DNA from: a virus
Taxonomy: Duplodnaviria; Heunggongvirae; Uroviricota; Caudoviricetes
Strand: one strand, 5' to 3'
Virus record (IMG/VR): IMGVR_UViG_2728369593_000006
DNA: 26,238 bases
Part shown: positions 1,712 to 11,734 of the stretch, piece after piece
Layout of the letters: the number at the start of each line of letters is the position of its first letter
Position numbering within the stretch: position 1 is the stretch's first letter
The notes under the pieces: model-generated
The model's database searches: none
What the model was told of the DNA's origin: nothing
What the model saw: only the letters and a program-made list of their open reading frames with translations
Made by a program: the position numbers and the translations under genes

Positions 1712-2275
1712 ATGAGGCTAACCGTGGGTAAGCATCACTGGAAAGTAGAAAAACAGCCTGAGTGGTACGTGAAAGCTGTCAGAAAAACTATCGCGGCGTT
1801 GCCGGGGGGTTACGCTGAAGCTGCTGAGTGGCTGGATGTAACAGAGAACGCTTTATTCAACCGCCTTCGTGCAGATGGCGATCAGATTTTCCCGCTGGGA
1901 TGGGCAATGATTTTACAGCGCGCGGCTGGCACTCACTACATTGCGGATGCTGTCGCACAGTCTGCTGGTGGGGTGTTTGTATCGCTTCCTGAAATTGAGG
2001 AAGTAGAGAACGCCGATATAAACCAGCGCCTGCTGGAAGTCATCGAACAGATCGGGAGTTACTCAAAGCAGATTCGTTCGGCAATCGAAGATGGGGTAGT
2101 GGAGCCACACGAGCAGACAGCAATTAATGATGAGTTGTATCTGTCAATTTCGAAGCTCCAGGAGCATGCAGCACTGGTCTACAAAATCTTTTGCGCTCCA
2201 GAAAAGAGTGACGCCCGCGAGTGTGCAGCTCCGGGCGTCGTGGCGTGTCGTGACTGTGGAGAAACTAACGCATGA
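1712..2275 (+). CDS. CII-like regulatory protein (CP76-type phage CII family)
   Basis: 187 aa directly downstream of cro in the rightward operon; family recalled from memory, not searched. Confidence 0.45.
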   Translation: MRLTVGKHHWKVEKQPEWYVKAVRKTIAALPGGYAEAAEWLDVTENALFNRLRADGDQIFPLGWAMILQRAAGTHYIADAVAQSAGGVFVSLPEIEEVENADINQRLLEVIEQIGSYSKQIRSAIEDGVVEPHEQTAINDELYLSISKLQEHAALVYKIFCAPEKSDARECAAPGVVACRDCGETNA

Positions 2276-3108
2276 ACAGTTTAACGGCAAATAACCGTTT
2301 GTCGCAACAGCTGGTGGTCAGCGTCGCTGAACACCTGTTGTTACGGCATGAATGCAGATTACCAAATCACCTGGCTGTAAGTAACCACAGAGAACTTTAC
2401 CTGACTGTGGGGGGCGAGTTGTGCAGGAACTTAACCGCTGGTTTCGTGACGGAAGAGGACTTTATGTTCATGTTATTCGTTGGGAGCCAGAAACACAGCG
2501 CGTTATCTATCTTCGCAAAGACTACCCGCATGAGTGCTTTAGTCCTTTGTGGAAATTCAGGCGTGATTTTGTTGAGTGTGAAGGACCACCAGCACATTGA
2601 TTCTGCCATTCCGGGACGTTACACTGTTCAGGCACCTTATAAAGCGGGTGCCGGGATTGGCGTCCTGGAATTGATCAAGGCGATATATGACGCGCCAGCG
2701 TCTTTTTTATCGTCCGCATTTGCTCACATCAAAGTTATGGTGGGCTGGGCGGGGGCATCGAAAGATGCGCCGGTTTCCTTGATCACCGGTTACGCCAACC
2801 CCGTTCAGTTCACCACCAGCGAAATTGGCGTTTCCGGTGGTGGAAGTATTTCACCGATCAAGGAGGCTGCCATCATGGCTACTGTCCCAGCCCTCACTCG
2901 TCTGAATGATGAAGACTTACATAAACTCAGTTATGTAACAACTGCACTACGTGCTCTGCGCAAGGTAACTCTTTCGGATCCGCAGGCGCATCAGGTTTTG
3001 GTAGAAACCCTTCTTAACTTGCAGGCTGAACGTATTCGTCTGGCGGATAAGGCTAATTTTCATATTCACCGTCTCCTGAATATCAGCGGAGGGCATCGTC
3101 ATGCTTAA
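2272..3108 (+). CDS. Hypothetical early-operon protein
   Basis: 278-aa ORF whose ATG overlaps the upstream stop (ATGA), indicating translational coupling; no family recognised. Confidence 0.4.
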   Translation: MNSLTANNRLSQQLVVSVAEHLLLRHECRLPNHLAVSNHRELYLTVGGELCRNLTAGFVTEEDFMFMLFVGSQKHSALSIFAKTTRMSALVLCGNSGVILLSVKDHQHIDSAIPGRYTVQAPYKAGAGIGVLELIKAIYDAPASFLSSAFAHIKVMVGWAGASKDAPVSLITGYANPVQFTTSEIGVSGGGSISPIKEAAIMATVPALTRLNDEDLHKLSYVTTALRALRKVTLSDPQAHQVLVETLLNLQAERIRLADKANFHIHRLLNISGGHRHA

Positions 3109-7917: not shown

Positions 7918-8283
7918 ATGCGTGATATTCAAATGGTTCTTGAACATTGGGGGGCATGGGTGGCAAATAATCACGAGGATGTCACTTGGTCGTCTATTGC
8001 TGCAGGATTTAAAGGACTAATCCCTTCAAAAGTAAAATCCCGCCCGCAATGTTGTGACGATGACGCGATGATCATTTGTGGATGCATGGCTCGCCTGAAA
8101 AAGAACAACAGCGATTTGCACGATTTATTAGTGGATTATTATGTAGGTGGTATGACGTTTATGGCGCTTGCCCGTAAACATGGGCGTTCTGATTGCTGGG
8201 TTGGGCGTTTATTGCAAAAGGCTGAAGGTGTAGTTGATGGCATGTTAATGATGTTAGAAATTGAGCTAGAGATGGATCGTTAG
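7918..8283 (+). CDS. Q: Late-gene antiterminator Q (phage 82 / QuuD type)
   Basis: [33 protein letters not shown]...[33 protein letters not shown] closely matches the E. coli DLP12 QuuD sequence as recalled; GTGGAG RBS 8 nt upstream. Confidence 0.8.
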
Positions 8284-8325
8284 AAGACCTCTTATTGAGG
8301 GGGTAATTGAATCAGTTTAATGTGT

Positions 8326-8356
8326 GGGGAGTCGATTTATTCTCCCCATTTTATTT
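8326..8356 (+). terminator. Rho-independent terminator about 45 nt downstream of Q (candidate tR')
   Basis: Stem GGGGAG/CTCCCC (8326-8331 / 8342-8347) followed by ATTTTATTT; U-rich tail is on the plus strand only. Confidence 0.5.
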
Positions 8357-8367
8357 AATTAATTTAC

Positions 8368-8814
8368 TTAAGGTTTTAATTCATCAAGACGTTGTTGGAT
8401 AGTGTTTTTGCTTGCGTTGTCTGTTATAGCCATTTGTTGTACTTGCCCCATTGCCATTTGAGTTTCCATCCACATATCGGCCCACACTTTTGTATCGTTA
8501 TTAACTTGAGCGATAGTAAATTTGACTTTTGATACCGGGGTTGTTGAATAGGCATTGCCGATTAACATTTGTCCAAAAACAGCAGACCCGCCTTCCAGTT
8601 CTTTACCACATATAACACTGCTGTTATCCGCGTTGTAAATTATCAACCCTCTACTATTGCAGTAATTCACAAGGGCATCTTTGACTTTATCTTTTGTCGT
8701 ATTTTGATAAACCCCCTCAGGTTTTCCTGATTGAGTTTTCTTTATCAATGGTACGGAAGAAGTACAACCTGAAATGATAGTTGCGCTAAGTAATAATACA
8801 GTCATTTTATTCAT
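8368..8814 (-). CDS. Lipoprotein of unknown function (moron in the Q-lysis interval)
   Basis: 148 aa; N-terminal signal peptide with lipobox LLSATIISG-C; AT-rich coding sequence; opposite orientation to the flanking phage operons. Confidence 0.6.
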   Translation of the reverse strand: MNKMTVLLLSATIISGCTSSVPLIKKTQSGKPEGVYQNTTKDKVKDALVNYCNSRGLIIYNADNSSVICGKELEGGSAVFGQMLIGNAYSTTPVSKVKFTIAQVNNDTKVWADMWMETQMAMGQVQQMAITDNASKNTIQQRLDELKP

Positions 8815-9084
8815 GTTTCTTATCCATTGTTAAGGGCATACCCACACAATTATTTTTATTGGAGATGAATAATCAACCGTTTACAATCGTAAAAAATCAA
8901 ATATGCTGTTAAGAGTGGTTACTTCGCCACACAACTTAAACCCGCCGCTGAGCGGTTTTTTTGTACCTGTAAACCTGGAGCAGTACAGTAAACACGCTGG
9001 TGGTCGTGAATACTGACTTTTTATCTTGCTGGCTTTTTAGACAAGAGTTATTGGTATGTCATGTTAACCAGAAGGGAAAAAGAC

Positions 9085-9288
9085 ATGCTAAAACAGCAAG
9101 ATATGACAGAAACCGCCGCAGCAGTCCTTCATTTCTTACCTGCTGACAAGTGGGTAACGCCACGCATGATGACGAGAACTACCGGAGTAAGCGAAGCCCG
9201 GTGCCAGTTAATACTGACTCAGTTAGTTCTGGCGGGTCTGGCGAAGGATAACGGCGGGTACGGGAATAAATTCAGACGCTGCCAGTAA
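9085..9288 (+). CDS. Hypothetical small wHTH-like protein (ORF track start 9061; ATG 9085 has the better RBS)
   Basis: 67-75 aa ORF; AAGGGAAA about 7 nt upstream of ATG 9085; no family recognised. Confidence 0.3.
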   Translation: MLKQQDMTETAAAVLHFLPADKWVTPRMMTRTTGVSEARCQLILTQLVLAGLAKDNGGYGNKFRRCQ

Positions 9289-9438: not shown

Positions 9439-10491
9439 ATGAAAAATACTGTAAAAATAAACAGTGTTGATTTAATCAACGCTGATTGCCTGCATTTTAT
9501 TCAGTCCCTGCCTGATGATTCCATTGACCTGATTGTTACCGATCCGCCGTACTTCAAGGTGAAACCCAACGGCTGGGACAATCAGTGGAAAGGGGACGAA
9601 GATTACCTTAAGTGGCTGGACCACTGTCTGGCCCAGTTCTGGCGGGTGTTAAAACCTGCCGGAAGCCTTTACCTGTTCTGTGGGCATCGCCTGGCATCTG
9701 ATATTGAGATCATGATGCGTGAACGTTTCAACGTGCTTAACCATATCATCTGGGCGAAGCCGTCCGGACGTTGGAATGGGTGTAATAAAGAAAGTCTGCG
9801 CGCATATTTTCCTGCCACAGAGCGCGTTCTGTTTGCTGAACATTACCAGGGGCCATATCGCGGCAAAAGTGACGGCTATGCAGCAAAAGAAAGGGAACTC
9901 AAACAGCACATAATGGCACCGCTGATATCGTATTTCAGGGATGCTCGTGCCGAACTGGGTATAACGGCAAAACAAATTGCCGAAGCCACAGGTAAGAAAA
10001 ATATGGTTTCCCACTGGTTTGGTGCCAGTCAGTGGCAGTTGCCGAATGAGGCTGACTATCGGAAGTTACAGGCACTGTTTTCCCGTATAGCGGCAGAGAA
10101 GTTTCAGGAACAACAACTGGAACAACCACACCACCAGCTGGTGGCATCTTATGATTCACTGAATCGCAAATATTCTGAATTGCTGGATGAGTTTAAATCT
10201 CTCCGGCGCTATTTCTCCGTATCAGTCTCCGTGCCTTATACCGATGTCTGGATGCATAAACCCGTTCAGTTCTACCCGGGTAAACATCCGTGTGAGAAAC
10301 CTGCGGATATGCTCCGGCAAATAATCAATGCCAGTAGTCGACCTGGTGATCTGGTTGCTGATTTTTTTATGGGATCCGGTTCCACAATAAAAGCAGCAAT
10401 GGCGCTGGGGCGTCGGGCCTTAGGTGTTGAGCTTGAGTCAGAGCGGTTTAACCAGACAGTGAAAGAGATAAACGAGCTGGTGGGGAAATAA
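9439..10491 (+). CDS. Orphan DNA methyltransferase (N6-adenine/N4-cytosine family, beta-class motif order)
   Basis: 350 aa; motif IV TDPPYF near the N-terminus and AdoMet-binding motif I DFFMGSGST near the C-terminus; no adjacent restriction endonuclease gene. Confidence 0.8.
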   Translation: MKNTVKINSVDLINADCLHFIQSLPDDSIDLIVTDPPYFKVKPNGWDNQWKGDEDYLKWLDHCLAQFWRVLKPAGSLYLFCGHRLASDIEIMMRERFNVLNHIIWAKPSGRWNGCNKESLRAYFPATERVLFAEHYQGPYRGKSDGYAAKERELKQHIMAPLISYFRDARAELGITAKQIAEATGKKNMVSHWFGASQWQLPNEADYRKLQALFSRIAAEKFQEQQLEQPHHQLVASYDSLNRKYSELLDEFKSLRRYFSVSVSVPYTDVWMHKPVQFYPGKHPCEKPADMLRQIINASSRPGDLVADFFMGSGSTIKAAMALGRRALGVELESERFNQTVKEINELVGK

Positions 10492-10773: not shown

Positions 10774-11270
10774 TGTCGCCATCATTACGCAAGGCTGTTG
10801 CTGCTGCTATTGGTGGTGGGGCTGTTGCCATAGCGTCTGTGCTCATCACTGGTCCGAGTGGTGACGATGGCCTGGAAGGTGTCAGCTACATACCATACAA
10901 AGATATCGTTGGCGTATGGACTGTATGTCACGGACACACCGGAAAAGACATCATGCTAGGTAAAACGTATACCGAAGCAGAATGCAAAGCCCTCCTGAAT
11001 AAAGACCTTGCCACGGTCGCCAGACAAATTAACCCGTACATCAAAGTCGATATACCGGAAACAACGCGCGGCGCTCTTTACTCGTTCGTCTACAACGTGG
11101 GTGCTGGCAATTTCAGAACATCGACGCTTCTTCGCAAAATAAACCAGGGCGATATCAAAGGCGCATGTGACCAGCTACGTCGCTGGACATACGCTGGCGG
11201 TAAGCAATGGAAAGGCCTGATGACTCGTCGTGAGATTGAGCGTGAAGTCTGTTTGTGGGGGCAACAATGA
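10773..11270 (+). CDS. R: SAR endolysin (phage 21 R21-type lysozyme, GH24)
   Basis: 165 aa; N-terminal signal-anchor-release segment ([18 protein letters not shown]) and lysozyme core; ATG overlaps the holin stop. Confidence 0.8.
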
Positions 11271-11734
11271 GCAGAGTAACCGCGATTATCTCCGCTCTGG
11301 TTATCTGCATCATCGTCTGCCTGTCGTGGGCGGTCAATCATTACCGTGATAACGCCATCGCCTACAAAGAACAGCGTGATAAAAAAGTCAGTGAGCTGAA
11401 GCAGGCGACCGCCACCATCGCTGACATGCAGCAGCGTCAGCGTGATGTTGCTGCGATCGATGCAAAATACACGAAGGAGTTAGCCGATGCGAAAACTGAA
11501 AATGAAACTCTGCGCGCTGATGTTGCCGCTGGTCGTAAGCGCCTGCGGGTCAATGCCAGTTGCTCCGCAGCCGTGCGTGAAGCCACCGGACCCACCAGCA
11601 TGGATAATGCAACCAGCCCCCGACTGGCAGACACCGCTGAACGGGATTATTTCACCCTCAGAGAACGGTTGATGACGATGCAGAAGCAACTGGAAGGGGC
11701 GCAGGAATATATCCGCACCCAGCGCATTAAGTAG
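11267..11734 (+). CDS. Rz: Rz inner-membrane spanin
   Basis: N-terminal transmembrane segment followed by coiled-coil-prone sequence; ATG 11267 overlaps the endolysin stop; Rz1 is embedded in the +1 frame. Confidence 0.7.
11487..11672 (+). CDS. Rz1: Rz1 outer-membrane lipoprotein spanin, embedded within Rz
   Basis: Lipobox LPLVVSA-C followed by a proline-rich mature region, entirely inside Rz in another frame. Confidence 0.65.

Follow-up and report, generated by a model that had tools for sequence, protein, structure and literature searches.

What is a lipoprotein gene doing between the antiterminator gene and the late genes of a lambdoid prophage, on the strand opposite to its neighbors? 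The question is raised by a gene of 148 codons in a stretch of viral DNA of 26,238 nucleotides (IMG/VR record IMGVR_UViG_2728369593_000006; hereafter, the window), which is an Escherichia coli lambdoid prophage. Comparisons of sequences and predicted structures strongly indicate that the gene product is an exported, lipid-anchored, probably outer membrane protein with one compact periplasmic domain, and that the gene is an independent unit that passes from phage to phage. As to its role, we tentatively favor a periplasmic lipoprotein, anchored in the outer membrane, that interferes with phage entry; we regard this as a possibility rather than a probability, and weigh it below against four other explanations.

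The lipoprotein open reading frame (ORF) is a real gene under purifying selection: synonymous sites are saturated between homolog pairs, with a nonsynonymous divergence (dN) of 0.2 to 0.5 and low dN/dS ratios (0.07 to 0.23 where measurable). Its coordinates and strand are exactly those of the preliminary description of this DNA, with an ATG start, and the AT-richness noted there is evident: the GC fraction is 0.376 for the gene and 0.37 to 0.40 over the island at 8100-9150, compared with about 0.50 on either side. In RefSeq and GenBank the product is labeled "hypothetical protein," and the region 8200-9100 of the window (901 bases probed) is 100% identical to NZ_CP085637.1. The gene order runs RusA, KilA-N, DUF968, and the antiterminator Q, then the oppositely oriented lipoprotein gene and a short conserved ORF, and then the genes for a DNA methyltransferase, holin, lysozyme, Rz, terminase, head, and tail. 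The coordinates of the features in and around the locus are collected in Table 1.

The N terminus (MNKMTVLLLSATIISG-C17) has a lysine (Lys3) in its n-region, a hydrophobic core, and the lipobox I-S-G-C, and satisfies a PROSITE PS51257-type rule. The assignment was made by rule (a positively charged n-region, a hydrophobic core, and [LVI][ASTVI][GAS]-C) together with conservation, and not by a trained predictor. The lipobox cysteine is invariant in alignments of 19 close and 52 distant homologs, the strict rule is passed by 114 of 148 distant family representatives, and the Pfam lipoprotein-attachment model LPAM_1 matches residues 1 to 17 weakly (E 0.22). The signal peptide and lipobox proposed earlier are thus borne out by the rule match and the invariant Cys17, and a signal peptidase II site is predicted by the same rule. 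The residue at position +2 is threonine, and the 114 representatives that pass the strict rule have A, V, S, T, or G there, never Asp; sorting to the outer membrane via Lol is therefore predicted, following the E. coli Lol rule that turns on Asp at +2.

The preliminary description regarded the protein as unrecognized, and it remains so in Pfam, NCBIfam, PADLOC, and PDB sequence searches, none of which found a relative; nor did the searches find homology to a structural phage protein. Even at E values up to 10, a Pfam scan yielded no models but SapB_1, SUR7, and LPAM_1, each well short of its cut-off, and neither Pfam nor NCBIfam has a model that covers the lipoprotein domain, distant members included. 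No family in PADLOC-DB 2.0 matches at E ≤ 1e-3, and PDB sequence searches with profiles of 19 and 52 sequences gave matches at the level of the signal peptide only. The sole family assignment is PHROG 3152 (E 6.3e-104, residues 1 to 148 on profile positions 1 to 148), to which no function is attached. The accession WP_001038605 is not mentioned in the literature searched, and the searched literature on exclusion lipoproteins and lambdoid hotspots holds no description of the family. One homolog, from Xenorhabdus, carries the UniRef label "Type IV secretion system putative lipoprotein VirB7," which we reject as an annotation artifact that covers the lipoprotein signal motif at most (compare the LPAM_1 match).

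The family is large and, in the databases, nameless. A word-indexed search recovered 29 close clusters, all from Enterobacterales and all "hypothetical," and an exhaustive profile search recovered 785 clusters (at 50% identity) at E ≤ 1e-3, with 396 at ≤ 1e-10; a second round of the wide protein search gave no curated names among its matches. Distant members are found in Alpha-, Beta-, and Gammaproteobacteria (genome scan with a nine-sequence alignment). Nearly all members are lipoproteins of about 150 amino acids (aa), and they share the motif S-G-x-P-E directly past the lipid anchor, the cysteines C52 and C69, and the motifs G-N-(S/A)-Y-S-T-T-P and W-x-E-T-Q-M-x-x-G-Q. Both C52 and C69 are invariant and may form a disulfide. 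The motifs GN(S/A)YSTTP and ETQMxxGQ sit in two loops and are conserved across the three proteobacterial classes. A minority of members have a C-terminal PDZ, TPR/YfiO-like, SHOCT, or cysteine-rich module, which suggests roles of these extensions in protein-protein interaction in the envelope. We note that the cysteine-rich module (P0035, P0036, P0038, and P0045) ends in ...GPGFETY..C.NGD....RCEFGNCR and has no Pfam match; the TPR/YfiO-like module is found in P0086, and PDZ, with or without SHOCT, in P0095, P0131, and P0150. Bor, Cor, and Llp are already known examples of prophage lipoprotein morons, and it is the family that is new rather than the category: some 785 clusters lie within this familiar class of prophage envelope morons without a Pfam or NCBIfam model.

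AlphaFold2 models the protein as one confident domain, with a predicted local distance difference test (pLDDT) score of 84.5 from 19 sequences and of 92.4, with a predicted template modeling (pTM) score of 0.83, from 52 sequences. Both runs give the same secondary structure, beta-alpha-beta-beta-alpha-beta-beta-beta-alpha, and the models strongly indicate that the 131-aa mature part is a compact alpha+beta domain of helix-grip, or TATA-binding protein (TBP)-like, type. The nearest folds are the N-terminal domain of BamC (BamC-N), KA1, and Flpp3, a likeness at the level of fold only. KA1, Flpp3/DUF3568, and the TBP-like DUF4468 proteins are among the closest known comparisons; Flpp3/DUF3568 is a virulence-associated lipoprotein of Francisella. 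The BamC N-terminal helix-grip domain resembles the model, but the sequence homology, BamD-binding N-terminal region, and pair of helix-grip domains that define BamC are lacking. A search of the viral structure database BFVD gave no match at E ≤ 1e-3, with TM-scores of 0.2 to 0.4.

Among 5,426 complete E. coli genomes, 185 carry the gene, in each case with Q on one side and the conserved late-region head on the other. Animal and human isolates are among the carriers, including the uropathogenic E. coli (UPEC) strain UTI89 and several enterotoxigenic E. coli (ETEC) strains. The gene is also present in PhiR40_1 and PhiR55_1, isolated temperate phages of the E. coli reference (ECOR) collection that have been tested on laboratory E. 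coli (PMC13190303), and the arrangement of Q and lipoprotein gene is the same in all 50 near-identical IMG/VR copies. Homologs at 50 to 72% identity are likewise in prophages, at other sites: Salmonella and Jejubacter have theirs between the tail genes K and I, Citrobacter and others between the tape-measure protein (TMP) gene and M, Enterobacter in a P1-like element, and Phytobacter in the early region. Of 20 IMG/VR homologs at 48 to 70% identity, 19 are within the TMP-M-L-K-I-J tail-tip block and co-oriented with it, 9 of them past TMP, 2 at the M-L junction, and 8 at the K-I junction. Consensus scans find a strong intrinsic terminator directly 3' of the tail-operon copies L004 and L009, and in L004 also a promoter-like site 5' of the gene. 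In Jejubacter (L003, 1703-6447; L092, 1471-5447), Arc-like, Bro-N, KilA-N, and HTH_3 repressor-like proteins, a 113-aa protein, and the lipoprotein are all encoded between K and I, a block that we read as a composite moron island inside the tail operon.

Distant members adjoin phage or mobile genes, including DUF4055 (which we take to be portal-associated) with DUF927, integrases, a CI-like helix-turn-helix (HTH) protein with Sipho_Gp157, a Toprim primase, and an N6_N4 methyltransferase with DUF5681, beside which is a large ORF that is presumably a terminase. Every member with annotatable neighbors lies on a phage or mobile element. The neighbors of a PDZ-fused Stenotrophomonas homolog have no Pfam matches, naive ORF calling being probably unreliable in this high-GC DNA, and synteny among six Stenotrophomonas loci is only partial.

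A moron, in the sense of Juhala and Hendrix, has the textbook layout of promoter, gene, and terminator (PMC3594210), and the lipoprotein gene fits the definition on three of five criteria, as judged from its sequence and that of its relatives. It is an extra relative to collinear phages, present in 185 genomes compared with 1,408 for the late-region head, with the slot otherwise holding other cargo or none, and its base composition deviates from that of its flanks as described above. For its own signals, consensus scans find a promoter-like site (8876-8849) and a 3' hairpin that lacks a U-tract on the gene strand.

The space between small-Q genes and the conserved late-region head is, on this comparison, a cargo hotspot. 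In other prophages with a small Q of the same Pfam family the slot contains an OLD-like ATPase-nuclease with a cytosine methyltransferase (L014, 88-2927; PADLOC matches to HEC-04/ATPase-Toprim), an NA37 nucleoid-associated protein with a 408-aa protein of no known function (L016, 563-2952), or a pair of 182-aa and 308-aa proteins of no known function (L038, 958-2419; L039, 952-2413), and the cargo is reverse-oriented in every case. The literature searched contains no description of this hotspot, which in other prophages carries defense-like genes and could yield further ones if mined.

In other small-Q prophages the cargo begins 12 to 24 bp past the Q stop, too close for a promoter to fit in between. 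On the right of the lipoprotein gene, the 200-base segment that starts at about 8888-8907 is the one present in 1,408 genomes, far above the number of gene carriers, and in small-Q prophages with other cargo homology resumes at this same point, just upstream of a hairpin and T-run. In prophages L015 and L040, which have the unrelated YdfT-type Q, the common sequence begins only at 8939. About 50 bases at 8888-8939 thus co-vary with the type of Q, and they hold a promoter-like TTTACA-16-TATGCT with a terminator-like element some 40 nt farther on; a promoter followed by a terminator-like element is the classical pR'/tR' layout of lambda. Because this segment follows Q type and the cargo abuts Q, pR' probably lies to the right of the lipoprotein gene, with the pR'/Q-loading site likely at about 8880-8940. 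The tR'-like hairpin is thermodynamically weak in the window (−6.3 kcal/mol, z −1.25), which weakens this placement. The preliminary description had the gene antisense to Q-driven late transcription; its orientation against its neighbors stands, but the antisense relation to late transcription is probably wrong with pR' placed at 8880-8940.

That description also proposed that the lipoprotein gene has its own promoter, for which the consensus scan supplies a sigma-70-like candidate, TTGATT-16-AATAAT, at 8876-8849. Another promoter-like match (8833-8804), which overlaps the start codon, was discounted, since its −10 element is inside the ORF. The gene would then diverge from pR' and converge on the early transcript ending in Q, with a terminator-like hairpin for the plus strand between them. 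This hairpin (8326-8345) folds at −13 kcal/mol on the plus strand (z −3.3) and at −11.2 kcal/mol on the minus strand (z −3.7), where no U-tract follows. As a speculative aside, the T-run of the hairpin region (8318-8360) is on the plus strand only, and the lipoprotein transcript may read antisense into the 3' end of Q, recalling the antisense control exerted by paQ in lambda.

How might such a protein interfere with phage entry? In a repressed prophage, the gene's own promoter (about 8876-8849) would drive its transcription, in the direction away from the late promoter. The target of the periplasmic domain would be either a conserved component of the envelope or some conserved portion of the incoming lambda-like tail tip or tape-measure conduit, and binding would hinder genome delivery by superinfecting siphophages, a superinfection exclusion at the level of the envelope. 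Copies in tail operons, if made during lytic growth, may also keep progeny from being wasted on cell debris. We favor this explanation because the E. coli slot holds defense-type cargo in sister prophages, because homologs recur among tail-tip genes, which encode the part of the virion that crosses the periplasm, because there are precedents for exclusion genes in or near tail and receptor-binding modules, and because known exclusion lipoproteins such as Llp have the same cellular address. Moreover, the near-invariance of the two loops across proteobacterial classes points to a conserved target rather than to one species-specific receptor.

Among the precedents, HK97 gp15 (YebO-like) is a moron with its own promoter and terminator in the tail operon beside the tape-measure gene and blocks genome entry (PMC3594210). 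Nine lipoprotein homologs are likewise directly past the TMP gene, and both products are located in the envelope; gp15 differs in being a small inner membrane protein of unrelated sequence and not a lipoprotein, and the E. coli copy of the lipoprotein gene is in the Q slot instead. Cognate exclusion genes typically adjoin receptor-binding loci downstream of gpJ homologs (PMC8594841), and T5 Llp is described as a lipoprotein of the outer membrane inner leaflet that acts in superinfection exclusion (10.64898/2026.03.26.714494; PMC9586334). The mechanism favored here is closest to that of a lipoprotein from a Gram-positive system, Ltp, which differs in its surface-exposed position on the cytoplasmic membrane and is unrelated in sequence and domain structure. 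Ltp stops the injection of DNA by way of the tape-measure protein, not the receptor. It is encoded by Streptococcus thermophilus phage TP-J34, is expressed from the prophage, and is the prototype of a widespread superinfection-exclusion family (PMC3952083).

Several points weigh against entry interference. AT-rich foreign DNA is often silenced by H-NS in E. coli, and the lipoprotein has no relation in sequence or fold to any known exclusion protein and no PADLOC match. The C-terminal 300 aa of J were compared in five carrier phages, and the E. coli prophage differs from the other four, with no co-variation of lipoprotein and receptor. The tail-tip location could reflect sites at which lambda-like genomes tolerate insertions, or common descent of the carriers, and the E. 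coli copy itself is outside the tail block. Finally, the PDZ- and TPR-fused relatives suggest an ancestral housekeeping role in the envelope that need not concern phages at all.

A broader version of entry interference is rather unlikely as it stands: the family would be a pan-proteobacterial, phage-borne class of outer membrane entry blockers, in which the helix-grip domain binds a conserved genome-delivery element of lambda-like siphophages. Candidate targets would be the tape-measure/tail-tip conduit, the gpK-type NlpC/P60 peptidoglycan hydrolase, the beta-barrel assembly machinery (BAM), Tol-Pal, and peptidoglycan, and retention of the gene beside the phage's tail-tip genes would let tip and blocker evolve together and be transferred together. 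If the lipoprotein does block genome delivery in the periplasm, it would add a new protein class to superinfection exclusion and offer a starting point for studying how siphophage DNA crosses this compartment, which is poorly understood.

If instead the protein alters the envelope, about 3% of complete E. coli genomes, UPEC UTI89 and ETEC strains among them, carry it as a lysogenic-conversion factor. Such a factor would serve host fitness, through serum or complement resistance of the kind seen with Bor, Iss, and TraT, outer membrane barrier function or stress tolerance, or adhesion, to the benefit of the lysogen in animals. Its carriage by animal and human isolates is consistent with this, as are the resemblance of the fold to the envelope lipoproteins BamC-N and Flpp3/DUF3568 and the PDZ- or TPR/YfiO-like-fused members, which point to general envelope biology. 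The bor gene of lambda is near the lysis genes, expressed from the prophage, and oriented against late transcription, and the gene described here similarly codes for a prophage outer membrane lipoprotein moron near lysis genes. The likeness to Bor and Iss ends there, since no Pfam Bor-family match is found and the fold and size differ. Bor itself is a conserved outer membrane lipoprotein involved in serum resistance (PMC3594210), which is irrelevant to the free-living Alpha- and Betaproteobacteria and the environmental viral contigs in which the lipoprotein family also occurs. With the strong positional link to tail-tip genes left unexplained as well, we consider a role in host fitness unlikely.

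The protein could also be a helper in the lytic cycle, a late product that masks or remodels an envelope component so that progeny are not lost on debris, or that tunes lysis and envelope breakdown. Most homologs outside E. coli are co-oriented in the late tail operon and would be transcribed late, the E. coli copy adjoins the lysis cassette, and T5 Llp protects progeny from debris in this way. However, the E. coli copy opposes early and late transcription alike and probably lies outside the late unit, the tail-operon copies with their own promoter-like site and terminator are typical of prophage-expressed morons, and the gene is dispensable, most related prophages being without it. A lytic role as the main function is accordingly given little weight.

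A receptor-specific blocker exactly like Cor or Llp, which binds the periplasmic face of one receptor (FhuA, LamB, OmpC, or BtuB) and inactivates it, is improbable. Cor (of phi80, N15, HK022, and T1) and Llp (of T5) are likewise phage-encoded, with a signal peptidase II signal, a predicted position in the outer membrane inner leaflet, and the status of a nonessential add-on, and they cluster with tail-tip and host-recognition genes, as do the homologs of the lipoprotein. Their cellular address matches, and their genomic habits near tail and receptor-binding genes are similar (PMC8594841; PMC9586334). Even so, they have no similarity to the lipoprotein in sequence or fold, so homology is absent, and the preliminary comparison with Bor, Cor, and Llp is apt for the broad class of small prophage lipoproteins only, as the protein belongs to none of the three. 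The mature forms of Cor and Llp have roughly 60 aa, about half the size of the lipoprotein domain. The putative binding loops of this domain hardly vary between Enterobacterales and Alpha- and Betaproteobacteria, although receptors of this kind differ there, and the carrier phages share no common J receptor-binding domain.

Lastly, identity as an o-spanin (an Rz1-like lysis component), to which weak PHROG matches to Rz-like spanins (E 0.018 to 0.035) and the nearby lysis cassette might point, is effectively refuted: the matches cover only residues 1 to 45, where the signal peptide lies, an Rz gene of the prophage's own is found past the lysozyme gene ("lysis protein" in the reference record, window ORF 11255-11734), the 131-aa domain is globular and not a short proline-rich protein, and homologs are found in tail and early regions away from lysis genes.

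Table 1. Features of the lipoprotein locus, in window coordinates
Feature	Coordinates	Strand	Basis or remark
Lipoprotein coding sequence	8368-8814	−	148 aa, ATG start, TAA stop; RefSeq WP_001038605.1; PHROG 3152
Signal peptide and lipobox (residues 1-17; Cys17 codon 8764-8766)	8764-8814	−	Lipobox rule match, invariant Cys, weak LPAM_1 match
Antiterminator Q, small-Q type, left border of cargo slot	7918-8283	+	PF06530, Pfam E 3.5e-51; RefSeq annotation
AT-rich cargo slot with lipoprotein moron	8284-8887		Different reverse-oriented cargo in other small-Q prophages
GC-rich hairpin between convergent Q and lipoprotein genes	8326-8345		Terminator-like, T-run on plus strand only
Candidate own promoter of lipoprotein gene, TTGATT-16-AATAAT	8849-8876	−	Consensus scan, 9/12 matches; ~28-nt leader to ATG
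Candidate late promoter pR', TTTACA-16-TATGCT	8880-8907	+	Consensus scan; putatively back to back with lipoprotein promoter
tR'-like short hairpin and T7, head of late genes	8944-8962	+	Conserved in >1200 E. coli genomes

There are also several other features of this region and its relatives. Between the tR'-like terminator and the DNA methyltransferase gene is an ORF on the plus strand (9061-9288, 68 to 75 aa) that is kept in >1200 E. coli genomes and has no Pfam match, although it is labeled a TrmB-family regulator in one genome. The DNA methyltransferase that follows (9439-10491, plus strand, 350 aa) is the first large late gene and matches PADLOC MTase_II (E 3e-152), and the early region has an apparent second methyltransferase, of N6-adenine type, according to the annotation of the reference record. 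In strain STE15 (L041, 3618-4700) part of a second antiterminator gene and then an OmpC-like porin gene in reverse orientation lie between the unit of Q and lipoprotein gene and the lysis genes, an arrangement similar to that of nmpC/lc. Finally, the plus strand of the window has Rfam matches to isrK (2632-2708, 64 bits) and C4 antisense RNA (2733-2820, 82 bits) in or beside an Ash-family ORF (2272-3108), a pair that we take to be an antisense immunity element of the P1/P7 type, in this case carried by a lambdoid prophage.

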